Source: Candidatus Dojkabacteria bacterium
GTDB lineage: Bacteria > Patescibacteriota > Dojkabacteria > JAFGLO01
Assembly: GCA_016927995.1 (NCBI GenBank)
Contig: JAFGLO010000004.1
Location: 64,955 to 128,954 of the forward strand
Reading direction: 5' to 3'
DNA: 64,000 bases
The position numbers were made by a program, and so were the translations under genes. Under the pieces are notes generated by a model, which ran no database searches, was not told the DNA's origin, and saw only the letters and a program-made list of their open reading frames with translations. Positions 5,209 through 19,633 of this stretch are shown piece by piece; the stretch's first letter is position 1, and every line of letters begins with the position of its first letter.

Positions 5209-7191
5209 TTATTCACCAAATACTGCATCGTGAGTGCGTTTCATCAAGCTTTGATCAAGAAGGGATGCAATTTTTATTCTAGGAATACCGCTTTGTAAAG
5301 TCCCGTAAACTTCACCCGGTCCCCTCCGCTTAAGGTCATATTCGGCGACTTTAAGTCCATCGATTGTTTTTGCAAAATATTCAAGTCTTTCCTTTACATC
5401 AGTTGAATCACTCTCGGAAAACAAAAAGCAATGAGACTTCTGATTTCGTCGTCCTATTCTTCCTCTTAATTGATGCAGTTGTGCAAGTCCAAACCTTTCC
5501 GCACTTTCAATAATCATAATACTTGCGTGCGGTATATCAATTCCAACTTCGACTACCGGTGTTGCTACCAATATGTCGTATCTAAGCTTGGCAAAATCGC
5601 TAAGAATTTTTTGTTTTTCCTGTTCCTTTTGTCTTCCATGTAGGAGTGCAATATCAAATTCAGGAAAGATTTTATTTTTAAGCCGATCAAACTCAAGCAT
5701 GGCAGCCTTTGACTGGAGATGAGGGGATTCTTCAATTAACGGACAGATAACAAACAATTGTTCATAGTCTTCAGTTTCCTTTCCATTAAGGATTTTTTCT
5801 CTTATCCATTCGTATACTTTTTCCGTATTATTTGTGAAATGAGTTTTGACTGGAATTCTGCCTTTTGGCATTTCATCGATATAAGAGATGTCAAGACTTC
5901 CATACAAAGAAAGTGCTAGTGTTCTTGGAATTGGTGTTGCCGTCATAATCAAATAGTGGGGATTATTACCTGTTTTATCAACAAAAGCTAGCTTTCCTCG
6001 TTGACGTACGCCAAACCTGTGTTGCTCATCAATTACAACTACACCAATTTTTTTAGGTAGATCCTTATGATGCAGTAGCGCCTGGGTTCCAATTAAAATT
6101 TGTGGTTTGTTCTCAATTTTTATTTTTCGGGTTTGTGCCGTTATCAATTTTATAGAGTTTGTATATTTTGGTGGGAGATAGCTTTTTATTGTTTCATAGT
6201 GCTGGGCGGCAAGAATTGTCGTTGGTGCCATGATTATTCCGGTTAGCTTGTTGTCAATGGCTGATACAAGTGCTGTTAATGCAACGATTGTTTTCCCGCA
6301 ACCTACGTCACCTGCAAGTAATCGGTGCATTGGCGCTTTACCGCTTGTATCGACAATAATCTCTTCAATTGATCGCTTTTGGGCTTTTGTAAGTTCATGC
6401 GGAAAAGTCTTGATTAGTAGTGGGAGGCCTTTCTTGGGAGTAATAGGGATAGCCTTTCTCTTCTTTTGAATTGTTTTTATTTTCTTAAGTTTTAGTTGAA
6501 TCTCATATAATTCCTCGAAACCTATACGTTCTCTTGCTTTTTCAATGTCAGTTTCGGATTCCGGAAAATGAATCTTGAAGATTGCTTCCGAGCGGGGAAT
6601 TAATGATTCCTTTGTTAATAGTTCTGTAGAAAGTGTTTCAGTTACAAGCTCTTTAACGAGTGGTTTGATTTTTGTGAAAATAGTTCTAAATTTTCTTGAG
6701 CTTAACCCCTTTGTTTCCGGATATACTGGAGTTATTCGACCAAGGTGTACAGTTGACTCAAGTGAGTTTTCTTTTATTTCCTCATGAATTGGGTTGGATA
6801 GATAAAATTCGTTGGTCTTAACCGTTAGTTTTCCCGAAAAAAGATAGTCGTTTCCGGGTTTTATTGCAGAAAGAATATAGGGCTGGTTAAACCATCTTAT
6901 AGAGATAAAGTTTTCACCATCTGTTCCGGTAGCAGTTACAATTGACATTCCTTTGGTTCTTGTGAAAACCCTTTTAACATTTGTAATTTTTAGTAAAACC
7001 GTACCTTCTTTCTCTACTAGTAGTTGGTGGACCCTTAATATTTGTGAAGTGTCAACATATCTTGTAGGAAAATGATTTAACAGATCTTCGACTCGCTCAA
7101 TGCCTAATTTACTAAGTAATATTGCAACTTTGGGACCAACTCTGGGAAGATATTGAACATTGTCATTGGCAGTAACTTTTTTTTCCGACAT
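5209..7191 (-). CDS. recG: ATP-dependent DNA helicase RecG
   Basis: Walker A GDVGCGKT, a DEQH box, superfamily 2 helicase motifs and an N-terminal wedge region at 660 aa. Confidence 0.93.
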   Translation of the reverse strand: MSEKKVTANDNVQYLPRVGPKVAILLSKLGIERVEDLLNHFPTRYVDTSQILRVHQLLVEKEGTVLLKITNVKRVFTRTKGMSIVTATGTDGENFISIRWFNQPYILSAIKPGNDYLFSGKLTVKTNEFYLSNPIHEEIKENSLESTVHLGRITPVYPETKGLSSRKFRTIFTKIKPLVKELVTETLSTELLTKESLIPRSEAIFKIHFPESETDIEKARERIGFEELYEIQLKLKKIKTIQKKRKAIPITPKKGLPLLIKTFPHELTKAQKRSIEEIIVDTSGKAPMHRLLAGDVGCGKTIVALTALVSAIDNKLTGIIMAPTTILAAQHYETIKSYLPPKYTNSIKLITAQTRKIKIENKPQILIGTQALLHHKDLPKKIGVVVIDEQHRFGVRQRGKLAFVDKTGNNPHYLIMTATPIPRTLALSLYGSLDISYIDEMPKGRIPVKTHFTNNTEKVYEWIREKILNGKETEDYEQLFVICPLIEESPHLQSKAAMLEFDRLKNKIFPEFDIALLHGRQKEQEKQKILSDFAKLRYDILVATPVVEVGIDIPHASIMIIESAERFGLAQLHQLRGRIGRRNQKSHCFLFSESDSTDVKERLEYFAKTIDGLKVAEYDLKRRGPGEVYGTLQSGIPRIKIASLLDQSLMKRTHDAVFGE

Positions 7192-7197
7192 TTGGCT

Positions 7198-7296
7198 TTA
7201 GTAAAATATCGTAAGCAAGACTGGACCTATTATTGATAAAAGTGTAGCAACAAGAATAATTATCCAGACAGCTTTTTGAACATTTTTTACTTTCAT
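7198..7296 (-). CDS. Candidate small hydrophobic protein (32 aa), translationally coupled to recG
   Basis: The ORF MKVKNVQKAVWIIILVATLLSIIGPVLLTIFY is preceded by an AAGAGG Shine-Dalgarno sequence 8 nt upstream. Its stop lies 7 nt before the recG ATG. It is too short for the ORF track. Confidence 0.3.
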   Translation of the reverse strand: MKVKNVQKAVWIIILVATLLSIIGPVLLTIFY

Positions 7297-7476
7297 TTTA
7301 CTGCCTCTTTAGTTTATGTCGAGTTTGCCTGTAAATGGCAATTCAACAAGGTATATGATACCATTAAATAACGAAAATATAAAGGTTGTTACTTTCTTTA
7401 GGTAACCCTCGTATTGTATATACCAACAATCCCAAAATTTAGGTATAATGAAACTTGAATAATTAACAAAAACAAA

Positions 7477-10400
7477 ATGGTAACTTTTAGCGTCTCAACA
7501 ACAAAAAAACAACCAAAACGTAAAACTCCGCCCAAGCGTCGCTCGGTAATGAACATCGGGTATTCAAAGTATAGACGCAGAATAAAAGGTGTTCACCTTT
7601 CAAAAGATGCTCAAACCTGGATTAAACGTGTTGGTACAGCCGCTGTAGTTATCTTTGGAGTCATTGGAATAATAGGTGCAATTGTACTCATGATTTTCCT
7701 GCGTAATGTAAAAAAAGACCTTCCGAATCCGGGTGAAATTTGGAATCGGAATATTGCAGAAGCCACCAGAATATACGATCGTAATATGAATCTATTGTAT
7801 ACAACCTTTGGTGATCAGAATAGAGAATACGTTTCTCTCGACCAAATTCCCAATGTAACACGTGCGGCAGTATTATCTGCAGAAGATAAAGATTTTTATG
7901 AGCACAGTGGTGTCGATTGGACTGGTCTTGTTGCCGCATTTTACGACAACTTCCGTTCTGGAAAGATTGTCCGTGGTTCAAGTACAATAAGTCAGCAGCT
8001 AGTTAGGAACACAATTTTATTGGATTATCTTGGGGAGAAAGCATATGAACAATCATATCTCCGAAAAATAAAAGAGATATTAATAACCCTTGAACTCGAG
8101 AATCAACTTACAAAGGATGAGATATTAGAGCTTTACATGAACGAAATTCCGCTTGGTGGAACCGTATACGGGTTTCAGGCAGCAGCTCAGTCATATTTTG
8201 GAAAGGACGTATCTCAACTTACACTTGCAGAAAGTGCACTTTTGGCCGGAATAATTAAGGCTCCAAGTTATTATTCTCCGTTATTTGGATTTGCACCGGA
8301 GGAAGCGATTGCGCAGAAAGATATGGTTCTTGACTTAATGGAGAAAAATCTCACAAAACTTAACGAAAGATACGGTATTACCCAAGAAGATATTGACGAA
8401 GCTCGACTTCAGCAAATTACATATAATCCCAAACCGATTGATATTAAGTCTCCACATTTTGTACTTTGGGTGAGGCAGCTTTTGGTAGAAATGTATGGGG
8501 CCGAAGTTGTTGAGCAGGGTGGTCTTACTGTTATAACCAGTCTTGATTATGACATGCAGCAAATTGCACAAGAGGAGATTCGTGTTGCAATTGACGGTAC
8601 CGGTACTGAAGTAGGATTTCGTGAACAGTACAATGTAAATAACGGAGCAATGGTTGTTCTTGATCCGCAAACAGGGGAAATACTTGTAATGGTGGGTTCA
8701 TATGATTATTGGACAATTGATGACCCGCGTGTCGATGGAAATGTTAATGTTACATTAAGTCCGCGCCAAATGGGCTCTGCCGTTAAACCAATTACATACC
8801 TTACTGCGTTTGAACAAGGTTATTCGCCTTCAACACTTGCTCCCGATATATCTTGGAGTTTTGGAGCAGCATATCAACCTAAAAACTGGGATGGAAGGTA
8901 CGATGGAATTATTCCTATGCGTGATGCATTACTGCGGTCAAGAAACCTTCCGGCATTATACACTTCCGAACTTGTGGGGGTACACAATTTTGTTGCAACT
9001 GCCGAGCGACTCGGGATTTCAACTCTAAATGATGTTAGTAACTACGGAGTTTCGATAACACTAGGTACTGCGGAAATGAAGCTTCTTGAGCTCACAAATG
9101 CATATGCCGCATTTGCTTCCGGTGGAATCCAGCATGAACCGGTGCCAATTTTAAAGGTTCTGGATAAAAAAGATAACGTTATCTATGAAGCCGATTTAGG
9201 TGACAGTTACAGAGTTATAAATGAACAGGAGGCATATTTACTAAACTGGGTTTTATGTAACGAAAGTAATACAACAAGACCAATGAAAGAACTTTATACA
9301 ATTGGTGGACAAAGGCTTTGCGGAAAAACAGGTACAACCGATGGACCTCGAGATCTCACCTCATTTTTGTATTACCCCAAGCTTGTTGTAGGAGTATGGG
9401 CCGGAAATAACAACAACGAAGTAACCTGTGGATATCGTTATGCCGATGGGACATGTAGAGGTCAGCAGGGTTGGAGTACAACAGTTCCATTGCCAATTGC
9501 TCATAGCTACTTGCAGCGTGTGATTGGTAGATTTGATAAAGCCTGGATAACCAGACCGGGAAATATCGTAGAGAAAAGAGTTTGTATGGACACAGGCTTA
9601 CCGGCTGGCGAAAATACTGCATGTCCTACCGAAACATTTGTGTTTAATGCAGACAGTTTGCCTGACAACGACGATTCGCATAAGACATATCCGATTTGTA
9701 GGGTAAACGGCCTAATTGCAACAAATGAATCAGAGGCAAGACAAATGGGATTAATCGACGATATTATGTATGTTGATTACAAGCTTGTAAATACTAACCA
9801 CGATAACGAGTGGCATAAATGGTTAACCGATCATAGAGATACAATTGCAGGGATGTTAGGAAAGAATATTGCCGATGTCCGTTATGCCTTTGAGCTTCCG
9901 GCTGAAGCAACCTGTCCACTTGGACTTGGCGGGAACAATGAACCGGTGGTTGCATTCTCTTCGCCGGTAGAGGGTCAGGAGGTTATTGCCGAGACAAATC
10001 TAAGAATTGCTTTTACTACGATTTCACTTGATCCAATTGTTAGTGCACAAATATTTTTTGACTCAACACTTGTTGGAACTGGCGATATTAACAGTAATTC
10101 AGCAGATATAACTTACCTTGTTCCTTCCGGGACAACAACCGGTAACCATATCGTACGAGTTGTTGTACGTGATAGTGCCGATAGGGTGACTGAAGCAACA
10201 AGAACTGTATCTGTAAGACAACCAAGAAATATATTTCTGTCGGTATCTGTAGTTAACGGATTTTCCAGTTCTGTCAAGGAGTTGCAAGCAAACCTAAGTG
10301 GAGCCGATATTGGGGATGTAAATTCGGTTACGTTTTATGTATACAATAGTTCCAACACTTTGGTTAAAACATTGTCTGGCGAAATATCTTCGGTTAGTCT

Positions 10401-10521
10401 ATGGACAACCAACATGACAATTAGCGATATGACATCCGGTGCATGGTACACGATTTATGCTGTTGCAAAGGCTGGTGTTGAAACATTTGAAAGTGCCGCA
10501 TACAATTATCAAATACCTTAA
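7477..10521 (+). CDS. Class A penicillin-binding protein (transglycosylase/transpeptidase, PBP1A-like) with about 250-aa C-terminal extension
   Basis: GT51 motifs (EDKDFYEH, RGSSTISQQLVRN), transpeptidase SAVK (SxxK), SRN and KTGTT motifs, and an N-terminal TM anchor. The C-terminal about 250 aa has no recognisable motif. Confidence 0.9.
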   Translation: MVTFSVSTTKKQPKRKTPPKRRSVMNIGYSKYRRRIKGVHLSKDAQTWIKRVGTAAVVIFGVIGIIGAIVLMIFLRNVKKDLPNPGEIWNRNIAEATRIYDRNMNLLYTTFGDQNREYVSLDQIPNVTRAAVLSAEDKDFYEHSGVDWTGLVAAFYDNFRSGKIVRGSSTISQQLVRNTILLDYLGEKAYEQSYLRKIKEILITLELENQLTKDEILELYMNEIPLGGTVYGFQAAAQSYFGKDVSQLTLAESALLAGIIKAPSYYSPLFGFAPEEAIAQKDMVLDLMEKNLTKLNERYGITQEDIDEARLQQITYNPKPIDIKSPHFVLWVRQLLVEMYGAEVVEQGGLTVITSLDYDMQQIAQEEIRVAIDGTGTEVGFREQYNVNNGAMVVLDPQTGEILVMVGSYDYWTIDDPRVDGNVNVTLSPRQMGSAVKPITYLTAFEQGYSPSTLAPDISWSFGAAYQPKNWDGRYDGIIPMRDALLRSRNLPALYTSELVGVHNFVATAERLGISTLNDVSNYGVSITLGTAEMKLLELTNAYAAFASGGIQHEPVPILKVLDKKDNVIYEADLGDSYRVINEQEAYLLNWVLCNESNTTRPMKELYTIGGQRLCGKTGTTDGPRDLTSFLYYPKLVVGVWAGNNNNEVTCGYRYADGTCRGQQGWSTTVPLPIAHSYLQRVIGRFDKAWITRPGNIVEKRVCMDTGLPAGENTACPTETFVFNADSLPDNDDSHKTYPICRVNGLIATNESEARQMGLIDDIMYVDYKLVNTNHDNEWHKWLTDHRDTIAGMLGKNIADVRYAFELPAEATCPLGLGGNNEPVVAFSSPVEGQEVIAETNLRIAFTTISLDPIVSAQIFFDSTLVGTGDINSNSADITYLVPSGTTTGNHIVRVVVRDSADRVTEATRTVSVRQPRNIFLSVSVVNGFSSSVKELQANLSGADIGDVNSVTFYVYNSSNTLVKTLSGEISSVSLWTTNMTISDMTSGAWYTIYAVAKAGVETFESAAYNYQIP

Positions 10522-10714
10522 TATTTGATATAATCTACCGCGTTGATCCAAGACAAATGCCACTTGGGGAGCAAGGGAACGTTGGCTTTTCCTTAAGGTA
10601 AGTCGGGTAGGTCTTTTGTACCTAACAAGTCTTTTGGGGGTGACTTCAAAAGAAAACGGAGGTGGTACCACCTTTAAAAAGGTCCTCCGGTGTTTAAATT
10701 GTTAGGTTTTTGTT
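10522..10714 (+). promoter_or_regulatory. alaS 5' leader: candidate T-box-like attenuator
   Basis: A TATAAT sits at 10531-10536. A hairpin CCAAG-acaaatGCCAc-CTTGG (10548-10567) has the Ala codon GCC followed by A in its loop. AGGTGGTACCACC at 10660-10672 resembles the T-box consensus AGGGUGGNACCGCG. A terminator-like stem CGGAGG...CCTCCG spans 10657-10689 and is followed by a U-rich tract. Confidence 0.3.
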
Positions 10715-12646
10715 ATGTTAACATCCGATCAAATCAGACAAAAATGGATATCTTACTGGACTTCTGCTCCACGTAAGCACAAGGAAATTCCGGCAGTTTC
10801 ACTTGTACCCGAAAACAATCCCACACTATTGTTTGTGAATTCCGGAATGTTTCCGTTAACGGAGTATTTGGCAGGTAAAAAACATCCGCTTGGAACAAGA
10901 CTTTGTAATATTCAACGGTCATTGCGTACGTCCTATGATGATTGGATGGAAATTGGTGATAATAGGCATACTCTTATGTTTGAAATGGTTGGAAATTGGT
11001 CACTTAACGACTATTTTAAGAAGGAGCAAATTCCGTGGATTATGGACTTTTTAGTAGATGAATTAGGGATTGACCCCAGTAGGTTATATGTTTCCGTTTG
11101 GGGTGGTGACGACTTGGTTCCAAGAGACGACGAGGCTGTTACCTTGTGGAAAAATGTATTTAAAAAGCATTGTATTACTGCAGAATTTTGTGAAAACAAA
11201 TCAAACTTACCTAAAGATCTTGTTGCCGGAAAAACACATACTGCTCGTATTTTTCCATATGATCGTAAAAAAAACTGGTGGCAGCGAGGGGAAGCTTCCG
11301 GTGAACTAGGTGGATCTACTTCCGAAATTTTTTATGACATGGGCAAGATAGAACGGGAGCAAGACGAATACCATATTAATGATGACTCCGGCAGGTTTGT
11401 GGAGATTGGGAACAGTGTTTTTATGGAATATAGGCTTGATGATGCCATGAATTGGACCCCATTGGGTAAGCAAAATGTTGACTTTGGAGGCGGACTTGAG
11501 CGAATTTGCATGGTTGTACAAGGAAAGAAAGATATTTTTGAAACCGACATATTCAGGCCGATTATTGAAAAGTTGGAAGAGGTTAGTGGCAAAAAATACA
11601 AGGACAACGAAGAGGAAAACGCTAATACACGATATTTCAGAATTCTTGCTGATCATGGAAGGGCTTCTGTTTTCTTGATTGCCGACGGAGTTTTACCTTC
11701 AAACAAGGACCAGGGTTATATTCTTAGGCGGTTTATTAGAAGACTTGTGGTTGTTGGGAAAAAATTAGGAATCGATAAAGAGTTTGCAGGCAAAGTTGCC
11801 GAAGCGGTCATTGACAGAATGAAAACTCCTTATCCTTTTTTAGAGTCACAGCGTGGTCATATTTTAGACGTAATTCGTGAGGAAGAGGGTAAGTTTAGAA
11901 GGACGATTGATAAGGCTGTAAAACAGTTGACAAGTTGGGCAAAAGAGATAAAAGGTGTGGATAATATAACTGGTGAGAAATTGTTTTATTTTAAGGAGAC
12001 GTATGGTTTGCCGGTTGAACTTATAATAGAGGAAGTTGGTAACCACATGAAATTTCGTGGGGTTATCTTTATGGATTCCGATGTTAAGAAGCTACTTTCG
12101 GAATTTAAAGCTGCAGAATTGGCTCATCGTGAAAAGTCACGCATTGGTGCTTCTCAAAAGTTTAAAGGTGGGCTTGCAGACGCATCCGAAATAACCACGA
12201 TGTATCATACAACTACCCATATTCTTTTAAAGGCATTGCAAGTAGTCCTGGGTGATCATGTGCACCAAAAGGGTAGTAACATTACGGCAGAGCGGTTGCG
12301 GTTTGATTTTAGTCACCCTGAAGCATTAACCGATGATCAGGTTACAAGGGTAGAGGAACTTGTAAATAAAGCAATTTCGGGCAATCTAAAAATGACTAAG
12401 GAAGAGATGTCTTTAACCGATGCTCGTGAAGTAGGTGCCGAAGGTGTGTTTGATGATAGGTACGGTGAAAAGGTGTCAGTTTACACACTTCTAGACGAAA
12501 CAACGGGGGAAGTTTTTTCCAAAGAAATTTGCGGCGGTCCTCATGTAGAAAATACTAACGAAATTGCAAAGCAAGGTAAGTTCAGGATTTTAAAGCAGGA
12601 AAATATTGGCGCTGGTAGTAGGAGAATTAAAGCGGTAGTTAATTAA
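10715..12646 (+). CDS. alaS: Alanine--tRNA ligase, short form without the C-terminal C-Ala domain
   Basis: N-terminal class II AlaRS core (NPTLLFVNSGMFPL) and an editing domain with HTTTHILL...H and CGGPHV motifs. It is only 643 aa. Confidence 0.88.
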   Translation: MLTSDQIRQKWISYWTSAPRKHKEIPAVSLVPENNPTLLFVNSGMFPLTEYLAGKKHPLGTRLCNIQRSLRTSYDDWMEIGDNRHTLMFEMVGNWSLNDYFKKEQIPWIMDFLVDELGIDPSRLYVSVWGGDDLVPRDDEAVTLWKNVFKKHCITAEFCENKSNLPKDLVAGKTHTARIFPYDRKKNWWQRGEASGELGGSTSEIFYDMGKIEREQDEYHINDDSGRFVEIGNSVFMEYRLDDAMNWTPLGKQNVDFGGGLERICMVVQGKKDIFETDIFRPIIEKLEEVSGKKYKDNEEENANTRYFRILADHGRASVFLIADGVLPSNKDQGYILRRFIRRLVVVGKKLGIDKEFAGKVAEAVIDRMKTPYPFLESQRGHILDVIREEEGKFRRTIDKAVKQLTSWAKEIKGVDNITGEKLFYFKETYGLPVELIIEEVGNHMKFRGVIFMDSDVKKLLSEFKAAELAHREKSRIGASQKFKGGLADASEITTMYHTTTHILLKALQVVLGDHVHQKGSNITAERLRFDFSHPEALTDDQVTRVEELVNKAISGNLKMTKEEMSLTDAREVGAEGVFDDRYGEKVSVYTLLDETTGEVFSKEICGGPHVENTNEIAKQGKFRILKQENIGAGSRRIKAVVN

Positions 12647-14579
12647 CAGTTTCCTCATGGTATACGACATGAATTTTTCCATTCACTACCATTACGTAGT
12701 AAATCTTAAGGTTAGTTCTATCTGGTAATTCAGGTAGACTTTCAGCACTGAACGTCGCTATATAGCTGCTGCCGTCATATTGGAACTTGGGTATAAAATA
12801 CTTATCGTTAATTAGTACTCCAAGGAATTTACAGCTTGAATCTGTTACTGAACAGGTTGCAGGGACCGATAGTTTATAATGTCCATCTTCTGTATATCTC
12901 AAGAATAGATTAGGCATATCTTTATAGTCATCAGTGACTGCGATAGGTTTATCATAATCCCCAAATTGTCCAGACCCTGGAGTCCAACCTTCATTGAATG
13001 TATCAGGTATTGGAACAGGAGTTTGGGTCGGGATAGGTGTATTTGTTGGGATAGGTGTCTTTGTTGGGGTAGGTGTAGGCGTAGGAACAGGTTGGGGTGG
13101 TATTATGTTTATTTCCTGGGGTCTTACTTTTCCTGGTGCGATTCCATTTTGAGTTTGGGCATTCCAAGTAGCAAGTGGTATTCCCCACGGGGTGATCAGA
13201 ATGTAATATGCGTCTACACCTTCGCCAAGCTTAAGAATGTATGTTCGGTAGGAGTGTATGCATAATGGATCGATAGAATCTCTGGGTCGACTTGCCGTTG
13301 TGCCCTCAGGCAATATAACCAGTTTACGATCAATCGGAAATTTTCCGTTGTTTTTTTCTGCTGGTACTTCAATTGTATGTGATGCATCATAATCAAATAC
13401 GATCTGTCTATCATTGTCTACAGCTACGGAGCTAGGCATATAAAAAGTTATTTGAACATTGCAAGGAACAGTGATATCTATATTTTCCGGGATATCTACG
13501 GATTCTTCGGAAAAAATATTAACGACCTGTGTTCTCCACCCCCAGTCGGATGTACAATCAGGGACCTTTGTTCTATTAAGAAGAACGTTGAAAGCATTTA
13601 CTAGATCAGGATTGATTGTCCATTGGTCCTGTGCTACTTTGCAATTTCCAGAAGGGGGTATAAATTCCACTAAACCATTATGTAAGGGTCTTTGTATTGC
13701 GCAAACACAATTGTGTTGTGTAAAAACAATTCTAGAGTTGTCTTGGTCGTATAAGCGTAATCGTTTATTTACTTCCCAAAGGTTTAGTTCAGAGTAGTCA
13801 ATAAAGTGTGTCCCGATATAAAATAAGTAATGCATCAACTCATGCAGGTATTGATAGAAAATAGGTTTTGGAAAGTAGTCCATTGAGAATTCTGGATACA
13901 TAGAGATTTCTGCCCAAGGTTTCCAATCCTTTGTAATAGGGAATGTTCCGTAAGTATGATTAAATTTTGAAAAGTATGTACAGATCCTTATTTTGTCAGG
14001 GTTATCTGTTTGATGCATAAATTCTTCAGTACAGATAACTATATCGGTTAACTGAATAGGCTGGATTGATCTTATTGGTACTCCGGATCTTTCAAGAATA
14101 TTCATCATTTCCTGTTGTTGGAAAAGCAAAAAATTGATAAGTGTGTTTTGAGGATTTTCTGAATCTTGAAATTGACTTGTATATTCTCCTAATACCGAAT
14201 AAGGATCGCTTTGCCAGGTATCCCAAGCTTCTTTGGAGACATATAGCATATAATTTCTGAATGAATTGTCAGAATCTCTGTTTTTGAGTGGATCAGATAA
14301 AATGGAATTCAGTTCTTCTTCGCTTGAAACCGGATGGTCAAGACAATGAATTTTAAGCTCCTGAGAAGCTTCAGCTAAGGACTCGGAAGTAATGGATATC
14401 TGTTCTGAAGGTACTGGAGTAGCAATAGGTGTACTTGTTGGAGATGTCGGAGGTGTGGTAGGTGTAGTCGGTTGCTCATCTGGTGGAATAATTTGCGGTG
14501 TTATTTTACAAGCACTCAGCAAAGGTAATACCAATAAGCTCCCAATTCCTTTTAGTGCGTTTCTTCTTCCTTCATCCAT
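12639..14579 (-). CDS. Putative secreted zinc metalloprotease lipoprotein with Pro/Thr-rich linkers
   Basis: An HELMH (HExxH) motif is present. Two PT-rich linkers are present (PTTPTTPPTSPTSTP and PTPTPTPTKTPIPTNTPIPTQTP). The N-terminus MDEGRRNALKGIGSLLVLPLLSAC has a twin-arginine-like motif and a lipobox (LSAC). The ORF extends to 14678, but the start at 14579 is preferred. Confidence 0.6.
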   Translation of the reverse strand: MDEGRRNALKGIGSLLVLPLLSACKITPQIIPPDEQPTTPTTPPTSPTSTPIATPVPSEQISITSESLAEASQELKIHCLDHPVSSEEELNSILSDPLKNRDSDNSFRNYMLYVSKEAWDTWQSDPYSVLGEYTSQFQDSENPQNTLINFLLFQQQEMMNILERSGVPIRSIQPIQLTDIVICTEEFMHQTDNPDKIRICTYFSKFNHTYGTFPITKDWKPWAEISMYPEFSMDYFPKPIFYQYLHELMHYLFYIGTHFIDYSELNLWEVNKRLRLYDQDNSRIVFTQHNCVCAIQRPLHNGLVEFIPPSGNCKVAQDQWTINPDLVNAFNVLLNRTKVPDCTSDWGWRTQVVNIFSEESVDIPENIDITVPCNVQITFYMPSSVAVDNDRQIVFDYDASHTIEVPAEKNNGKFPIDRKLVILPEGTTASRPRDSIDPLCIHSYRTYILKLGEGVDAYYILITPWGIPLATWNAQTQNGIAPGKVRPQEINIIPPQPVPTPTPTPTKTPIPTNTPIPTQTPVPIPDTFNEGWTPGSGQFGDYDKPIAVTDDYKDMPNLFLRYTEDGHYKLSVPATCSVTDSSCKFLGVLINDKYFIPKFQYDGSSYIATFSAESLPELPDRTNLKIYYVMVVNGKIHVVYHEETVN

Positions 14580-14670
14580 GGTTACATTTACATATTTTGT
14601 TAGCACCGAACGTATATTATAACGTATTTGTGTCATAGAAAACAGCTTAAAGCCGTGGTAGAATAAATAC

Positions 14671-15558
14671 ATGAGCACAAAAGGTCAATTGGTACAAACC
14701 TTCACAGAAGATGACTTACAGTTAAGTGCATTTTTTGTGGAAGGGGATAAAACTAAACCTGCAATTATTCATGTTCACGGGTTTGAGGGCGATTTCTTTT
14801 CAAATAAATTTGTACATGCGATTGGTGACACGGTTTCCTCAGATGGCAATGCTTATCTAACATGCCAAACTCGAGGCATGGGTATGGCTACAGAGTTTCA
14901 TACAGCAACTCCCGAAGTTGGTCGAAATATTGGTGGTGATTACGAGCGCTTAGAAGAGGCTCACTACGATATTAGTGCATGGATTAAGTTTCTTTTAGAG
15001 CTTGGCTACAAATCAGTTATTTTACAAGGGCATTCTTTAGGAACTATAAAGATTGTAAGATATATGTCAGAAGGAAAATATGCAGATAGAGTAAAAGCAC
15101 TGATTTTGCTTTGTCCTTTTGATAAAACTGCTGGGTCAGATATCTATACTAAAGGTAAGTTGAAAGAATATGTAGAAACGACAAGGAAAAAGGTTAGAGA
15201 AGGTAAGGGCAGAGACATTATTCCTTCGGAGTACGACCCATCTGATTCTTCTTATCAAACGTTTCTTTCCTGGTATGATGATACAAATCTTGGCAGAATG
15301 TTTGACTTTTATAATAAAGAGTACGAGTTTCCTGTGCTAAAGGCATTGAACCTCCCTGTACATGTAATTGTTGGGTCTAAAGATGAGTACTTTGCACCAG
15401 GGCAAGAAGGCAAGTTTTCAGAAGTTCTTAAATTTATGCTTTCAAAACTTAAAAATGGAACTGGCAAACTAATTGAAGGTGCAACGCACGGTTTTGGCGG
15501 GTACGAGGATATGGCTGCTAAAAGTGTTATAGAATTTGTGGGTTCAGTTGACAACTAA
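14671..15558 (+). CDS. Alpha/beta-hydrolase fold protein (esterase/lipase-like)
   Basis: It carries a GHSLGT nucleophile elbow (GxSxG) and HVHGFEG. It is 295 aa. Confidence 0.75.
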   Translation: MSTKGQLVQTFTEDDLQLSAFFVEGDKTKPAIIHVHGFEGDFFSNKFVHAIGDTVSSDGNAYLTCQTRGMGMATEFHTATPEVGRNIGGDYERLEEAHYDISAWIKFLLELGYKSVILQGHSLGTIKIVRYMSEGKYADRVKALILLCPFDKTAGSDIYTKGKLKEYVETTRKKVREGKGRDIIPSEYDPSDSSYQTFLSWYDDTNLGRMFDFYNKEYEFPVLKALNLPVHVIVGSKDEYFAPGQEGKFSEVLKFMLSKLKNGTGKLIEGATHGFGGYEDMAAKSVIEFVGSVDN

Positions 15559-15920
15559 TTGTCGCTATAGTACGAAGTGAGGTCAGGTCTACGAGGTTAG
15601 CTAGACTATTCGACAAGAATATCTTTATCCAAATCCCAAACTTCATGTATTTTTACCAGTACCGCAACAACTGGAGCCGGAGGAGAACTTCTTTTTATCA
15701 TATTATATTTTCTGATTCGATGAGTGTGAGAAACGTCGCGGCACAGTTCAGTGATAGGCGACATTTTCTGTTCTCGCCTTAGGTTTAAAACCAGAGTATA
15801 AAATCAATTCCTTCTAAACATAATGATCTATCGCTGGTCGTAGAATTCTGTTCTCTTTTGTGATAACTCAGAGGTTACAGAACTTGAACCTTCCCGAAGC
15901 CTTATACTATAGTACAATGG

Positions 15921-17450
15921 GTGGTGTATAATTGTTGTTTCTGTATTATTACATTTATTTATTCAATGGTAGACAGTTTAAATCGAGCTACAGCTGAAAC
16001 AGGAAATGGCACTACACCCTACCTGCCGGAGGAAGAAGACAGACCTACCCAAGGAGACGGTCGCTTATCGAGAAGACAGTTTGGTATGTGGCTACTTAGA
16101 GCCCTGGTCGGTGTGACGGTTTCTGCTTGTAGCCGTACTTCCCAAGTGTTTGTTGAGCAGCAGCCTGTCCAGAAAAGTGCTGGCACAACAGCAACACCGA
16201 TCTCTGAGGTATCCCCAACTTCAATGAGCACAGTAGATGTAGCAAAGGCGCCGGCACCTCGTGCGCATATTGATGAGGAAACCGGACGCGTTATTTTGCA
16301 TGAAGAAGTTTTTCAAGCTATAGAAGCCATGTCTGAGTCTGAGCTTATTGGCGCAATTCGTAATATCAATGAAGTATATGAAACCGATCCGCGTTTTGCT
16401 GGTTTGGGTGTTTTGGATGGGCAGAATAAATCAAGGACTGAAACCGATCCAATGCATTACAAAGAACTTGGCATACCGGTAGGATTACTGGCATTACAGG
16501 CATGTTTTGGTACCAGGCTTGCAGAGGTTCATTACAAGGATATTGTCGGCGTAAGAGCTAGAAGCTTTGTAAGAGATATAGATCTTTTTGCATCAAATTA
16601 TGATCTGGCGATCACGGCAAACAGGATTGTGAGATACTCCCCTCTTGTTTATGATATGTTGGATCATAAGAATATGACACTTGGAGGAATTACGTATTTT
16701 GAAGAAGATTCGAGTGGAAGCATGAATTTCAGGCCGAGAGTATTGATTTCTCTTCAAAATATCAGTCACCTGATTGATCCTTTTCTTCGTGCTGCCCAGG
16801 TAGGTCTTGATGAAGCCGTTGAGTCATTCAAGCAGATGCCGAATTTTCTTGAAGATATGAAAGTCGTGGGAGCTGACATTTTTAGAGGCAAATATGCCGG
16901 GAAATTCATTAAAGGATTTCAAGGTTTCCGGCCAGTTCTTTGCGACACGACTGATTGCAAATATTTCACTAACGTAATTTACAGAAATGTTGATGAGTAT
17001 TTTACGTCCTGGCTGACAAGGTTTGAAATTGCTGGAGATAATGAAATTGAAGAGCTAGCGTACCAGTGCGAATGCCAGTATGATTTCGGGTCAATGGTTG
17101 TTGATTATTTAATGGATAAGGTTGGAATCACTAGAGAAGAAGTGATGGGTATATTATTTACTGGTGGAGGATCTATGGGCATGCAGGACCTTATATTCGA
17201 GAGACTTGGGATAAATCCTGGATTGTTGGATTTAAATGATTCCCGGAGGTGGGTGCTATGGGATATTATCGATGAGTCGGCAAACTCAGTCTGGGCAGCT
17301 CAAGCAGAAAAACTCCCGGATCTCGGCTCTGGTGTTGCCTTAACTGCGGATATGTTTCTTCGGGCCATGAAAGAAGCGGTTCAAGAGCAATATGATATTT
17401 TAACTCAGAGAATCGATGAACATTTGGCGGAGCTTAGTAGAATAAGTTAG
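15921..17450 (+). CDS. Hypothetical exported protein with a Tat-type signal; probable foreign gene
   Basis: 509 aa. It has SRRQFGMWLLRALVGVTVSAC, a twin-arginine motif followed by a hydrophobic region and a Cys. Local GC is visibly higher than in neighbouring genes. No catalytic motif is recognised. The true start is probably downstream of 15921. Confidence 0.55.
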   Translation: MVYNCCFCIITFIYSMVDSLNRATAETGNGTTPYLPEEEDRPTQGDGRLSRRQFGMWLLRALVGVTVSACSRTSQVFVEQQPVQKSAGTTATPISEVSPTSMSTVDVAKAPAPRAHIDEETGRVILHEEVFQAIEAMSESELIGAIRNINEVYETDPRFAGLGVLDGQNKSRTETDPMHYKELGIPVGLLALQACFGTRLAEVHYKDIVGVRARSFVRDIDLFASNYDLAITANRIVRYSPLVYDMLDHKNMTLGGITYFEEDSSGSMNFRPRVLISLQNISHLIDPFLRAAQVGLDEAVESFKQMPNFLEDMKVVGADIFRGKYAGKFIKGFQGFRPVLCDTTDCKYFTNVIYRNVDEYFTSWLTRFEIAGDNEIEELAYQCECQYDFGSMVVDYLMDKVGITREEVMGILFTGGGSMGMQDLIFERLGINPGLLDLNDSRRWVLWDIIDESANSVWAAQAEKLPDLGSGVALTADMFLRAMKEAVQEQYDILTQRIDEHLAELSRIS

Positions 17451-17544
17451 TGGAAAATTAATAGATGGGGCACATCATAGCTTTGTCGGGTATGAAGACC
17501 AAGTCGCTAAAAGTGTTAAGGATTTTGTAGCATCAGTGGGTTGA
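17446..17544 (+). pseudogene. 3' remnant of a second alpha/beta-hydrolase paralog
   Basis: It translates to VSGKLIDGAHHSFVGYEDQVAKSVKDFVASVG*, which closely matches the C-terminus GKLIEGATHGFGGYEDMAAKSVIEFVGSVDN* of the hydrolase at 14671-15558. It directly abuts the stop of the 509-aa ORF. Confidence 0.6.
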
Positions 17545-18090
17545 GTAATCTATTTGCTCGTGGCCGGTAATTGGTAAAGCTAACCCGGTAAGATTTGGAT
17601 TTTTACGTTTCTTTAGGTGCTTGTCTGTATATAGAGCCATGTTTTTGCCAACGTAATTTAGCTTTACTTCATGGACGGTATGTCCAAGCTTTTCCGCATA
17701 CTCGATTAGTGATTTTCTCCAGTTTATTCCGTTTGGCACCGTGCAAGTGTAAACCAATTATTAGATCGTAATTTTTTACATCTTCTGGTTCAAAGTTTCG
17801 GGTGATTCTATTAATGCAATCTCGCTCTTCCGGAAGAAGTTTCTTTCTTTTATGATTTAAGTCCCTAAATTTCCAGGGAAGTTCCTGCCAAAGCGGATCA
17901 ATTACAGTTGAGCCCAGCCGGCTTGGGTAAGAAAGTAGCTAAGAAGCCCTTTTCCGCTGCCCACATCGGCAGCTTTGCAAGGTTCATACATTTCAATTAA
18001 CCATTTGGCCCAAAGTTGAAACCTAAACTTTTTAGGGCGTCGAAGGCTAGTTGATTTCGTGGATTTGAGCTTCATCTTTCTCTGAGTCAT
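17533..18090 (-). pseudogene. Frameshifted class I SAM-dependent methyltransferase
   Basis: Motif I DVGSGKGLLSYF lies in one frame. A motif IV-like YDLIIGLHLHG and the C-terminal part lie in two other frames. Three ORF fragments cover the region. Confidence 0.4.
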
Positions 18091-18098
18091 ATATCAAA

Positions 18099-18116
18099 GT
18101 CAAGTCAACTTGACTA
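18099..18116. repeat. Perfect palindrome AGTCAAGTCAACTTGACT
   Basis: 7-bp inverted arms lie between the divergent pseudogene and the ORF at 18169. This is a possible operator or recombination site. Confidence 0.5.
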
Positions 18117-18130
18117 GATTTTACCAGAAA
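18113..18130. repeat. Direct repeat ACTAGATTTTACCAGAAA, left copy
   Basis: The same 18 to 19-mer (ACTAGAATTTTACCAGAAA) recurs at 19065-19083, immediately outside the partial tRNA copy. The pair brackets about 960 bp. Confidence 0.55.
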
Positions 18131-18168
18131 TAATTAGGGAATATCGTGATAAGCCGTATCCTGAAGTT

Positions 18169-18432
18169 TTGACAAGGCAAGAGATTGAATTAAAGTTAAG
18201 TCTTGTAAACAGATTGACGGACGGTCAAAGTGCTTTGCCGATTGAAAGATTGGCAAAGCGTAGACAAAAACAATATGAAAAGCAACTCGAAAAGTTTTCA
18301 AGCTATTCAGACGACCAAATATTGGAACAACATACTAAAACAGTTAACAAGGAAAGAGCTATGAGAGAGAAAATGGTAGCCAAAATCAAACGAACATGGG
18401 AAGCCGGTACGAGTGTGTCATTAGATGTCTAA
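18169..18432 (+). CDS. Hypothetical small basic/helical protein, 87 aa, TTG start
   Basis: ORF only; no motifs. It lies in the tRNA-Pro mosaic region. Confidence 0.3.
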   Translation: MTRQEIELKLSLVNRLTDGQSALPIERLAKRRQKQYEKQLEKFSSYSDDQILEQHTKTVNKERAMREKMVAKIKRTWEAGTSVSLDV

Positions 18433-18439
18433 ATAGATA

Positions 18440-18601
18440 AAACACTCAAATCGGGGCGATGCCCACTTCGGGGTATCCTCCCCGCTTTGGTATTTTGACT
18501 GCACTTTGTTTGTCAAAACACTCAAATCGGGGCGATGCCCGTAAAGGGTATCACCCCCGCTATCGCATTTTGTCTGCACTTTGTTTGTCAAAACACTCAA
18601 A
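18440..18601. repeat. About 76-bp tandem repeat, 2.2 copies, each carrying a decayed tRNA-Pro 3'-end copy (att-like)
   Basis: Units start at about 18440, 18516 and 18590. Each begins AAACACTCAAATCGGGGCGATGCCC. The third unit runs into the genuine tRNA 3' end (ATCGGGGCGACACG...). Confidence 0.7.
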
Positions 18602-18675
18602 TCGGGGCGACACGACTTGAACGTGCGACCTCATGACCCCCAGCCATGCGTTCTAGCCAACTGAACTACGCCCCG
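18602..18675 (-). tRNA. tRNA-Pro (anticodon GGG)
   Basis: Manual cloverleaf fold: acceptor CGGGGCG/CGCCCCG with A73; D stem GTTC/GAAC; anticodon stem CATGG/TCATG with loop CTGGGGG; T stem GCACG/CGTGT with loop TTCAAGT. No encoded CCA. Confidence 0.85.
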
Positions 18676-18925
18676 ATATTATACCCGCTTCAACATAAAA
18701 GCTATCCCTAGCTATTCTACTCTTCTTTATTTTTTGCTCCAAAGATCTAGCTCCTTTCAAATCTTTACATTTCTTAAAGTACACGAGCTTCCATTCTGTG
18801 CCATTTTTCGTATATTTTGATTTTCCTCTATTGTGCTCAGATAGTCTGCGCTTTATATCATCCGTTGATCCAACGTAAATCCTATTCTTTATGTCTTTAA
18901 TTATGTATATCCCAACTTTATTCAT
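18653..18925 (-). CDS. GIY-YIG nuclease superfamily small protein
   Basis: IYIIKDIKNRIYVGSTDDIKRRLSEHN contains the GIY...YVG motifs and conserved R/E/N. It is about 90 aa. Its 3' end overlaps the tRNA-Pro 5' region by about 23 nt. Confidence 0.75.
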   Translation of the reverse strand: MNKVGIYIIKDIKNRIYVGSTDDIKRRLSEHNRGKSKYTKNGTEWKLVYFKKCKDLKGARSLEQKIKKSRIARDSFYVEAGIISGRSSVG

Positions 18926-18941
18926 ATTTCACCTATTCTAT

Positions 18942-19062
18942 TCATGACCCTCTATCTGTCGATAGACAGGCCAGCCATGCGTTCTAGCAAATCTCCATTC
19001 TGATTCATCAGAATAAGGATCCTCGATTCCGAGTCACGGAATCGGGACTGAACTACGCCCCG
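18942..19062 (-). pseudogene. Partial duplicate of tRNA-Pro (positions 1 to about 43) interrupted by two insertions
   Basis: It matches the tRNA-Pro acceptor 5' strand and D arm through the anticodon stem. A roughly 57-nt insertion sits in the D loop. A 20-nt palindromic insertion (CTATC-GACA-GATAG) sits in the anticodon loop. The T arm and acceptor 3' strand are missing, and the GIY-YIG start codon lies 17 nt away. Confidence 0.6.
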
Positions 19063-19064
19063 AT

Positions 19065-19083
19065 ACTAGAATTTTACCAGAAA
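19065..19083. repeat. Direct repeat ACTAGAATTTTACCAGAAA, right copy
   Basis: See the left copy at 18113-18130. Confidence 0.55.
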
Positions 19084-19190
19084 AGCAGCACGAAGTGCAT
19101 AGGTTAATCAAATGAGCCAAGGGTTTGAATTTACAGCGCTAACGGTATTTATAGTATTGGCGGAGAGAAGCGGAAATAAGGCGGGTTTGC

Positions 19191-19499
19191 CTACTTTTCA
19201 GGTGTTGTTATTGGCTTTTGCTTCTTTTTAGATATTGAGCCAATTACATTGACAATAATTACACCCAAGATAGCACCCAAAACTGCTCCAATTATTAATG
19301 ATCCGATTGCCGTAAAAAGTATATAGACCCAGCTTTTCACCATCATTTCGACGCCGAATTTCATTTCGGAAATTTTTGGAGGAAGCCAATATGTGAGTGC
19401 CCAATGCATAGTGAGATAAGCACCGGGGATTCCCCCAAGTATAATTCCCAAAAGATTTTTGCCTATTGCAACAAAGAGCTTTTTAAGATCAGTCTTCAA
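19191..19499 (-). CDS. Hypothetical small membrane protein (102 aa, about 3 TM)
   Basis: Hydrophobic spans and a Lys-rich C-terminus. Confidence 0.5.
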   Translation of the reverse strand: MKTDLKKLFVAIGKNLLGIILGGIPGAYLTMHWALTYWLPPKISEMKFGVEMMVKSWVYILFTAIGSLIIGAVLGAILGVIIVNVIGSISKKKQKPITTPEK

Positions 19500-19633
19500 T
19501 ATTTTTTATGTAAAGTTATATATTAATATCTTAATCTAGAACTGAAATAAAGTACACACTCAATTTTATCTAATATGATAAAGGTTCTATTTGAGTGTAT
19601 AATGCTTACGTTATCTTATCTTATTATAAAAAT

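Follow-up and report, generated by a model that had tools for sequence, protein, structure and literature searches.

The region downstream of an intact alpha/beta hydrolase gene in a metagenome-assembled contig of Candidatus Dojkabacteria (CPR), of which a stretch of 64,000 nt was analyzed (the window), is best explained as a decaying part of the bacterium's own chromosome, and not as an island of foreign DNA. We assign a probability of roughly 60% to this reading, which includes the deletion of most of a second hydrolase gene, hydB. In the proposed ancestral state two anciently diverged paralogs of the DUF1749 family, hydA and hydB, would have resided at this locus, and hydB would have been arranged tail-to-tail with a methyltransferase-like gene, with an overlap of 12 nt between the 3' ends of the two genes. 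About 85% of hydB would then have been lost recently, by deletion or by some other illegitimate joining of DNA, with its last 31-47 codons left behind. A gene for a putative lipoprotein now abuts the hydB stump, runs into it out of frame, and stops there. The loss of hydB was probably tolerated, because hydA is still present. The methyltransferase-like gene was inactivated separately, through the loss of 1 nt at one site and of about 89 nt at another. Both the mechanism, i.e., deletion, and the order of the events are what we infer from the present arrangement.

An intact hydrolase gene and the remnant of a second one

The intact gene, hydA (14671-15558, plus strand), encodes a DUF1749-family alpha/beta hydrolase of 295 aa, which scores 38.3 bits against Pfam PF08538 (cut-off 24) and also matches Abhydrolase_1 and Hydrolase_4. 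It has 131 homologs, for the most part in Patescibacteria, and in an alignment of 36 sequences the catalytic columns S122 (in GHSLG), D238, and H273 are invariant. DUF1749 (PF08538) members often carry the automatic annotation "pimeloyl-ACP methyl ester carboxylesterase".

The 3' stump of hydB was delimited with the family HMM and tblastn (17404-17544, plus strand). Its clear part, 17452-17544, comprises 30 aa and a TGA stop codon of a DUF1749 hydrolase C-terminus, and an open stretch of 32 codons at 17446-17544 (VSGKLIDGAHHSFVGYEDQVAKSVKDFVASVG followed by the stop) matches the hydrolase C-terminus. The best match is hydA, with 20 of 29 residues identical and a local BLOSUM62 score of 98, compared to 25.1 +/- 4.1 (maximum 52) in 2000 shuffles. 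The tblastn match has an E-value of 9e-7 and 93 additional family members match the same spot, in agreement with the proposal of a sequence-only reading of this DNA that a second hydrolase is truncated here and that the remnant is its C-terminus. The stump keeps the His column (GAHHSF) without Ser and Asp, and its stop codon is overlapped by the C-terminal tail of the methyltransferase-like pseudogene.

On the DNA level stump and hydA are 70% identical over 87 nt, and their 29 codons comprise 10 identical ones, 10 with synonymous, and 9 with non-synonymous differences. The sequence-only reading had spoken of a duplicate hydrolase; the second copy is indeed there, but the term is misleading, because 10 of the 20 conserved codons differ synonymously, i.e., the two copies are anciently diverged. 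The family HMM matches the stump at model positions 247-289 of 290 with 31-39 bits. A model built without hydA gives the stump 30.7 bits and the tail of hydA 24.5 bits, and the value of the stump lies inside the range of 16-33.5 bits of functional family members. The synonymous divergence of half of the conserved codons, together with the good profile fit, indicates that hydB is an old paralog that was cut recently. The 16 codons upstream of the clear part (17404-17451) probably also belong to the hydrolase; their profile signal, which is weak, adds 8.2 bits, a value reached by 0.4% of 500 shuffled extensions. They contain an in-frame TAA at 17443-17445 and share DNA, in a different frame, with the final 15 codons of the lipoprotein ORF.

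No hydrolase-like DNA was detected at 15559-17400 in a search of all frames. The first part of this interval, 15559-15965, is a non-coding spacer with a GC content of 0.373, no Rfam match, and small ORFs without Pfam match; in a promoter scan, a site resembling a promoter appeared at 15884-15913, ahead of the lipoprotein gene. An uninterrupted tandem pair of hydrolase genes, which the sequence-only reading had suggested to look for in relatives, was not found: in none of 45 loci of GTDB species representatives do the flanks (±10 kb) contain a second hydrolase or synteny. Synteny with the window is also absent from the contig of the closest hydrolase homolog. The collections searched contain no close relatives of the source genome; the best hydrolase homolog is 52% identical, and the closest homologs in general are about 50% identical and reside in contigs without synteny with the window.

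A methyltransferase-like pseudogene and the reliability of the sequence

The methyltransferase-like gene on the minus strand (17533-18090), which was delimited by homolog alignment and tblastn, is a true pseudogene. The sequence-only reading had described it as broken across three frames; broken it is, but its three segments, 18090-17914, 17911-17725, and 17723-17533, lie in two frames. The first lesion is a 1-nt deletion at 17912-17913, and the second, at approximately 17721-17725, removed about 89 nt. In the tblastn alignments the block N..II....KDF.L.PCCVI.EPI is gone, and the larger deletion takes out the invariant residues N112, P130, C131, C132, I134, and E136. In addition, the invariant G39 has been changed to Ser. 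Homologs, e.g., P0124, have tails to which the C-terminal end of the pseudogene (NLTGLALPITGHEQIDYST) can be aligned; together with the overlap with the stop of the stump, this favors a native convergent arrangement of the two genes. The family consists of small proteins of 176-238 aa, with 50 intact homologs that are at most 47-48% identical to the pseudogene, and metagenome contigs yielded 331 relatives. At none of 80 metagenome loci around such genes is a hydrolase a neighbor. The frame-corrected pseudogene matches Methyltransf_32 with just 18.5 bits, where the cut-off is 27, and a minority of the intact homologs have a precomputed match to PF13679 or PF13489.

As the source sequence is a metagenome-assembled contig and one of the lesions is a single-base indel, the junction and the frameshifts could in principle be artifacts of a chimeric MAG contig or of read errors. 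We regard this as highly improbable. In the Logan assembly, made from the same run (SRR13394437), window positions 5966-18528 are matched with 100% identity, i.e., over 12,563 nt with all lesions included, and because this assembly is independent, the lesions do not originate from a single assembler. Furthermore, a base-calling error cannot produce a deletion of about 89 nt that strips invariant residues.

A putative lipoprotein gene with a single homolog

The orphan gene between the spacer and the clear part of the stump (15966-17450, plus strand) encodes a putative lipoprotein of 494 aa when the ATG at 15966 is used. Alternative starts are a GTG at 15921, which results in 509 aa, and an ATG at 16086, which results in the 454 aa of the NCBI call; a look-up of the latter form returned no record. 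The ORF contains LSRRQFGMWLLRALVGVTVSAC. The statement that the 509-aa ORF has no recognizable domain was confirmed, as profile searches with Pfam, NCBIfam, PHROG, PADLOC, and PDB yielded nothing significant for this protein and equally nothing for its homolog. In a word-indexed search of 5.8 billion proteins the protein matched itself alone. Of the two approaches recommended for it, structure prediction and remote homology search, the first failed, as the AlphaFold2 models were unusable (mean pLDDT of 34.8 with the single sequence and 33.7 with a two-sequence alignment). The second was successful: phmmer detected one homolog among 1.84 billion cluster representatives, P0122 (JW766_01590, 465 aa), with 24% identity over 416 aa and an E-value of 5e-13. 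It is encoded by another Dojkabacteria MAG from the same sample. The core MDKVGITREEV is identical in both proteins (11 of 11 residues). A recent exchange between the two co-occurring Dojkabacteria was considered and rejected, because the DNA of this core is identical at just 24 of 33 positions, with third-position changes. The gene is real and belongs to a two-member family known from Dojkabacteria only. It is intact, and it is nearly full length, because in both members about 55-60 residues follow the conserved block. A kinship with the neighboring RR-lipoprotein of 679 aa was not found. As a putative surface lipoprotein family restricted to Dojkabacteria, the two proteins may bear on the cell-surface biology of these presumed episymbionts.

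The sequence-only reading had assigned a twin-arginine (Tat) signal to this protein, which is doubtful. The two Arg codons (16071-16076) represent residues 36-37 of the 494-aa form, and the sequence S-R-R-Q-F-G-M fits five of the seven Tat consensus positions; the RR pair is lost if the protein starts at ATG 16086, as in the NCBI call. The TATFIND rule demands about 13 or more uninterrupted uncharged hydrophobic residues after the RR pair. Here, seven uncharged residues are followed by Arg45, which interrupts the hydrophobic region, nine additional residues, and Cys55. The homolog P0122 has no RR but a single Lys at this place (...HTIPKSGIVIG...). The lipobox V-S-A-C (16119-16130), of which C55 is the Cys, is preceded by ALVGVT with R36, R37, and R45 upstream, as in signals for signal peptidase (SPase) II. 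Between Arg45 and the lipobox positions there are only 5 uncharged residues, one short of the six or more that the classic lipobox pattern requires. In the alignment with P0122, C55 is matched by the Cys of LVVLLAC, and a long polar n-region is present in both proteins. Because the Cys is conserved, both n-regions are long and polar, and the signal of P0122 is canonical without RR, the sequence is more likely a Sec-type lipoprotein signal, atypical as such, than a Tat signal. The product would most likely be exported by Sec and lipidated at Cys55, and the two arginines probably represent mere positive charge ahead of the hydrophobic segment. A TatA-like motif, FG..[KR][LIV]P, was absent from all six frames of the window. 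The Tat pathway has been reported for freshwater MAGs of the CPR classes Microgenomatia, Paceibacteria, and Saccharimonadia, and Dojkabacteria are not among the Tat-bearing classes listed (PMC9166423).

The composition of the gene bears on the main claim of the sequence-only reading, namely, that a horizontally acquired segment encoding an exported protein was inserted at the second hydrolase and replaced its 5' part. The GC content of 0.428 exceeds the window mean of 0.385 and is the second highest of 43 ORFs, and therefore the ORF is numerically GC-richer, as had been stated. It does not stand out, however, as z is +1.9 and a single ORF is higher (0.444). For GC3, z is +1.35. It is only the first 335 nt (15966-16300) that carry the excess; here GC is 0.51 and is elevated at codon positions 1 and 2, while the rest of the gene has a GC content of 0.412. 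It is due to the signal and linker region rich in Ala, Pro, Thr, and Gly, which acts via GC1 and GC2 and not via GC3. The gene for P0122 behaves likewise, with 0.388 versus 0.351 for its own genome (3.7 points richer). The Karlin codon bias of 0.237 is ordinary (rank 32 of 43 genes), and the dinucleotide delta* has a z of 1.1-1.8. A local rise in GC of this kind, caused by a signal and linker region, can be mistaken for evidence of horizontal transfer.

The surroundings point in the same direction. The flanking genes have housekeeping functions (ArgRS, BipA, RecG, PBP, AlaRS, 5'-nucleotidase, MreB), and no integrase or transposase is encoded within about 10 kb of the lipoprotein segment. The sole gene of the mobility type nearby is a GIY-YIG ORF adjoining tRNA-Pro. 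Relatives of the lipoprotein were not found in viral contigs, phage records, or plasmid records. In sum, the ordinary codon bias, the local nature of the GC excess, the restriction of the family to Dojkabacteria, the lack of mobile relatives, and the housekeeping flanks make the gene look native, and horizontal acquisition is not supported. The high GC rank, the extreme sparsity of the family (two members in >15 billion proteins), the abrupt junction with the hydB stump, and the presence of a tRNA gene and other scars at a distance of at most 1.2 kb would nevertheless fit an insertion. With codon usage ordinary, the GC excess explained by amino acid composition, the only homolog in the same candidate phylum, and mobility genes absent from the segment and its immediate vicinity, we consider the insertion of foreign DNA unlikely. 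Deletion cannot be separated from insertion or replacement on the basis of one sequence.

The tRNA-Pro mosaic and comparison with known systems

Beyond the pseudogene, at higher coordinates, follow an ORF of 87 aa (18169-18432, plus strand), which was called in the Logan assembly and has no match in Pfam, NCBIfam, or PHROG, and a tRNA-Pro(GGG) mosaic on the minus strand (18441-19068), which was characterized with Rfam and by repeat comparison. The mosaic is composed of two tandem trailer units of 75/76 nt (18441-18600), the intact tRNA-Pro(GGG) gene (18601-18676), which is the only Rfam match at 15300-19600, the GIY-YIG ORF of 90 aa (18653-18925), and an interrupted copy of the 5' part of the tRNA (18950-19068). 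As had been proposed, several scars of rearrangement cluster within about 3.5 kb adjoining tRNA-Pro. In several CPR genomes, homologs of the GIY-YIG ORF also lie beside an intact tRNA gene with a partial copy of the tRNA 5' part nearby; in the window, and likewise at one of the other loci, L024, the intact gene and the partial copy flank the ORF. This arrangement is a more interesting lead than the lipoprotein region.

The mosaic is also relevant for an alternative in which the locus has only ever had a single hydrolase gene. Its 3' end would have been entered by a cassette of about 2 kb (15462-17450) that supplied a substitute end, and the remnant would be the displaced original, much as some elements integrate into a tRNA gene and rebuild it. 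The direct repeats of 87 nt formed by the stump and the tail of hydA enclose exactly 1,989 nt and have a core of 13 identical nucleotides (GCTAAAAGTGTTA) in common, the family profile matches the stump better than it matches the present tail of hydA, and GIY-YIG ORFs beside an intact tRNA and a partial 5' copy occur next door and at other CPR loci. However, the unit encodes neither a recombinase nor an endonuclease, the repeats are just 70% identical, similarity to the hydrolase seems to begin 16 codons before the repeat, and the cassette was found nowhere else in searches of proteins, viruses, phages, and plasmids. We therefore judge this alternative to be quite improbable, and even less probable is that the 1,989-nt unit is a non-autonomous 3'-end cassette mobilized in trans, e.g., by the GIY-YIG endonuclease 1.2 kb away. 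More modestly, the last 15 codons and the stop of the lipoprotein gene may have been taken over out of frame from hydrolase DNA. In the favored reading of a decaying native chromosome stretch, the paralog stump and the pseudogene with two lesions document recent decay in a streamlined CPR genome, a finding of limited weight.

Compared to genomic islands adjacent to tRNA genes, the segment is likewise close to a tRNA gene (tRNA-Pro, at a distance of 1.1 kb) and has repeats and pseudogenes in its neighborhood. It differs from them in having no integrase, no compositional deviation, no mobile-element relatives, and no island-typical cargo, and no direct repeat of the tRNA 3' end brackets it. Within the DUF1749 (PF08538) family, hydA is a full-length member with the Ser, Asp, and His columns kept. 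Of the profile, the stump covers the final 43 positions, among them the catalytic His column; about 85% of the gene, with the Ser and Asp, is missing, and what is left cannot code for an enzyme. None of the related genomes examined has two adjacent copies. The methyltransferase-like family shares with class I SAM methyltransferases a motif I-like D-V-G-x-G-K-G-L-L, and the copy in the window and some homologs have a weak Pfam similarity, which is below the Pfam cut-off. The invariant H-x-H-G-x-N and P-C-C-x-I-x-E are atypical for this class, and the activity is putative.

In comparison with Tat signals (S/T-R-R-x-F-L-K), S-R-R-Q-F of the lipoprotein fits the first five positions, but G-M replaces L-K, Arg45 breaks the hydrophobic region, and the homolog has no RR. 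From bacterial SPase II lipoproteins (L-[AS]-[GA]-C) it differs by an unusually long acidic n-region of about 35 aa and by the Arg in the hydrophobic stretch, which leaves about nine uncharged residues before the Cys. The order of the elements is nonetheless the same, i.e., positive residue(s), a hydrophobic stretch, and V-S-A-C; P0122 has a canonical signal of this type (K...LVVLLAC), and the Cys is followed by a linker rich in Pro, Thr, and Ala, as in the neighboring 679-aa protein (RRNALKGIGSLLVLPLLSAC).

A remnant of a second hydrolase gene

The gene hydA (14671-15558, plus strand) encodes an alpha/beta hydrolase of the DUF1749 family (PF08538, 38.3 bits, cut-off 24). It has more than 130 homologues, mainly in Patescibacteria, the closest being 52% identical, and Ser122 (in GHSLG), Asp238 and His273 of its product are invariant in an alignment of 36 sequences. 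The sequence-only reading had noticed a remnant resembling the C-terminus of this hydrolase directly after the stop codon of a large ORF downstream, and this observation holds. The clear part of the stump (17452-17544) reads GKLIDGAHHSFVGYEDQVAKSVKDFVASVG, followed by a stop codon. Among 120 family members its best match is hydA itself (20/29 residues identical; score 98, compared to 25 ± 4 for 2000 shuffles), and 93 further members match the site in tblastn. Other hydrolase-like sequence was not found in any frame of 15559-17400. The family profile covers 43 positions of the stump (model positions 247-289 of 290), starting at 17404, and this alignment passes through an in-frame TAA (17443-17445). 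The 16-codon upstream extension adds 8.2 bits, a gain matched by just 0.4% of shuffled extensions, and it suggests that the stump of the lost paralogue, hydB, probably continues, in a different frame, beneath the final 15 codons of the large ORF.

The term "duplicate" overstates the closeness of the two copies. The 29 aligned codons, 70% identical at the DNA level, comprise 10 identical ones, 10 with synonymous and 9 with non-synonymous differences. With a family HMM built without hydA the stump scores 30.7 bits, functional members span 16-33.5 bits, and the tail of hydA itself reaches 24.5 bits. The many synonymous differences and the good score of the stump argue that both copies diverged long ago while under selection, and that the truncation of hydB is recent. 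The uninterrupted tandem pair was searched for in relatives, but none of 45 species-representative hydrolase loci with ±10 kb flanks contains a second DUF1749 member. These loci show essentially no synteny with the window, and the contig of the closest hydrolase homologue carries different neighbours. A DUF1749 gene was absent from all 80 metagenome loci that surround methyltransferase-like genes. The lineage is too sparsely sampled for the ancestral gene order to be read from relatives.

The putative lipoprotein gene

The large ORF (509 aa from GTG 15921, end 17450) is a real gene. It is 100% identical to MBN1373920.1 (JW962_01110, Candidatus Dojkabacteria bacterium), encoded on a 131-kb MAG contig. 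An exhaustive phmmer search of 1.84 billion cluster representatives yielded a single homologue, P0122 (JW766_01590, 465 aa), encoded in a second Dojkabacteria MAG that derives from the same run. Both proteins share 24% identity across 416 residues (BLAST, E 5e-13) and 39% in a 94-residue block. The core MDKVGITREEV is identical in 11/11 residues, but in only 24/33 nucleotides, and thus it has been conserved by selection and a recent exchange between the two genomes is ruled out. The two genomes with the known family members (loci L001/L002 and L052) have GC contents of 35% and 38.5% and co-occur in SRR13394437. As noted before, the protein has no recognisable domain: Pfam, NCBIfam, PHROGs, PADLOC, PDB, phages, plasmids and viral contigs gave no match, and structure prediction gave no usable model.

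The ORF had been described as visibly GC-richer than its surroundings, and an insertion of foreign DNA carrying it had been proposed to have cut the second hydrolase copy. Its GC content is indeed higher than the window mean (0.428 versus 38.5%), but this corresponds to just z=+1.9 among 43 ORFs, one of which exceeds it. GC3 is 0.365 (z=+1.35), and the Karlin codon bias ranks 32 of 43. The excess resides in the first 335 nt (GC 0.51, the remainder 0.412), where the signal peptide and a linker rich in Ala, Pro, Thr and Gly are encoded, and it is caused by GC1 (0.60) and GC2 (0.54), with GC3 at 0.39. The P0122 gene is likewise richer than its own genome (0.388 versus 0.351). Therefore, composition and codon usage fall within the normal spread, and the compositional case for a foreign origin fails. 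Foreign DNA insertion is possible, but nothing positive speaks for it.

The proposed twin-arginine (Tat) signal is doubtful. In the 494-aa form (from ATG 15966) a long polar n-region is followed by S-R-R-Q-F-G-M-W-L-L-R-A-L-V-G-V-T-V-S-A-C, and Arg45 interrupts the hydrophobic stretch, which counts against Tat. With the start codon chosen by NCBI the RR is lost entirely. The signal of P0122 is laid out in the same way. It has just one Lys and carries a canonical lipobox (LVVLLAC), whose Cys aligns with the lipobox Cys of the large-ORF protein. For some CPR classes, Tat components have been reported in MAGs from freshwater (PMC9166423); a TatA-like motif is absent from the window. We infer that a Sec/SPase II lipoprotein is more likely than a Tat substrate.

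A neighbouring 679-aa protein (12639-14678, minus strand) has a lipoprotein-type RR...LLSAC signal, Pro/Thr-rich linkers and a HELMH (HEXXH) motif. It has no match in Pfam, NCBIfam or PHROG and, despite the similar signal, no sequence relationship to the large-ORF protein; it may be an uncharacterised surface metalloprotease. The spacer between hydA and the lipoprotein gene contains a 19-nt direct repeat (CTATAGTAC..., 79% identical; 15565-15583 and 15907-15925), which brackets 342 nt and may be due to chance.

The methyltransferase-like pseudogene and the tRNA-Pro neighbourhood

The methyltransferase-like gene (18090-17533, minus strand) is broken, as described, but its three segments lie in two frames, not three. 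The frame-corrected sequence has 50 intact homologous proteins (176-238 aa, identity up to 47-48%) and 331 relatives on metagenome contigs. The tblastn alignments revealed two lesions, namely, the loss of one base from the codon joining ...AGW and STVIDP... (17912-17913) and the loss of about 89 nt at ~17721-17725, which took the block N..II....KDF.L.PCCVI.EPI and thereby six invariant columns of the family. In addition, the invariant Gly39 is changed to Ser. The gene is a true pseudogene. That it belongs to the SAM methyltransferases is weakly supported (Methyltransf_32, 18.5 bits, under the cut-off of 27). Besides a glycine-rich loop, the family shares the invariant motifs F-R-F, H-x-H-G-x-N and P-C-C-x-I-x-E, and it occurs in Patescibacteria and some Chloroflexota; few members pass any Pfam methyltransferase cut-off, and the family could represent small enzymes not yet described. 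In CPR genomes the intact homologues stand amid housekeeping genes. The C-terminal tail of the pseudogene aligns with homologue tails and overlaps the stop of the hydrolase stump convergently by 12 nt, which suggests that hydB and the methyltransferase-like gene were long-standing neighbours.

Further along (18601-19068), a 90-aa GIY-YIG ORF (18925-18653, minus strand) lies between an interrupted tRNA-Pro(GGG) copy and the intact tRNA-Pro (18676-18601), and its stop falls in the D-loop of the latter. The copy comprises the first ~44 nt; a hairpin-rich insert of 55 nt interrupts its D-loop, and its anticodon loop holds a 20-nt palindrome. Locus L024 (4693-5158) has the same layout, with perfect 106-nt repeats on either side of a GIY-YIG homologue; the start of tRNA-Asn is part of the repeats. 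Two looser cases have the ORF downstream of an intact tRNA gene: in L001 (13018-13659) 18 nt of the tRNA-Phe 5'-end are repeated upstream, and in L005 (4520-4980) 20-nt repeats flank the ORF. This suggests that small GIY-YIG cassettes insert at CPR tRNA genes and duplicate the 5' part of the tRNA. Directly downstream of tRNA-Pro, two tandem 75/76-nt units (18441-18600, 88% matches) each terminate in the last 9 nt of tRNA-Pro (TCGCCCCGA) and form a strong hairpin (z=-4.7 versus shuffles). These units could be trailers that were duplicated, or else terminators that act in both directions between an 87-aa ORF and tRNA-Pro.

Origin of the segment

An independent Logan assembly of run SRR13394437 has zero mismatches to the window at 5966-18528, and its contig breaks within these 76-nt repeats next to tRNA-Pro. 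Therefore, the junctions and frameshifts are not peculiar to one assembler. The segment is flanked by housekeeping genes, on one side ArgRS, BipA/TypA, RecG, a class A PBP and AlaRS, on the other 5'-nucleotidase, MreB and an M23 peptidase, and neither an integrase nor a transposase is present in the ~±10 kb scanned around it.

The observed features were confirmed, and their interpretation is supported in part: the hydrolase truncation and the pseudogene stand, a foreign origin is not supported, the Tat signal is doubtful, and the closeness of the copies was overstated. Local decay of native DNA is the best-supported account. A recent deletion or illegitimate join would have removed most of the old second hydrolase paralogue, so that the lipoprotein gene now reads into the hydrolase stump, and the adjacent methyltransferase-like gene was hit separately by two lesions. 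A cassette that brought a substitute gene end is possible, but it is likewise without positive support. The features are ordinary in kind and include a small new family of putative lipoproteins.
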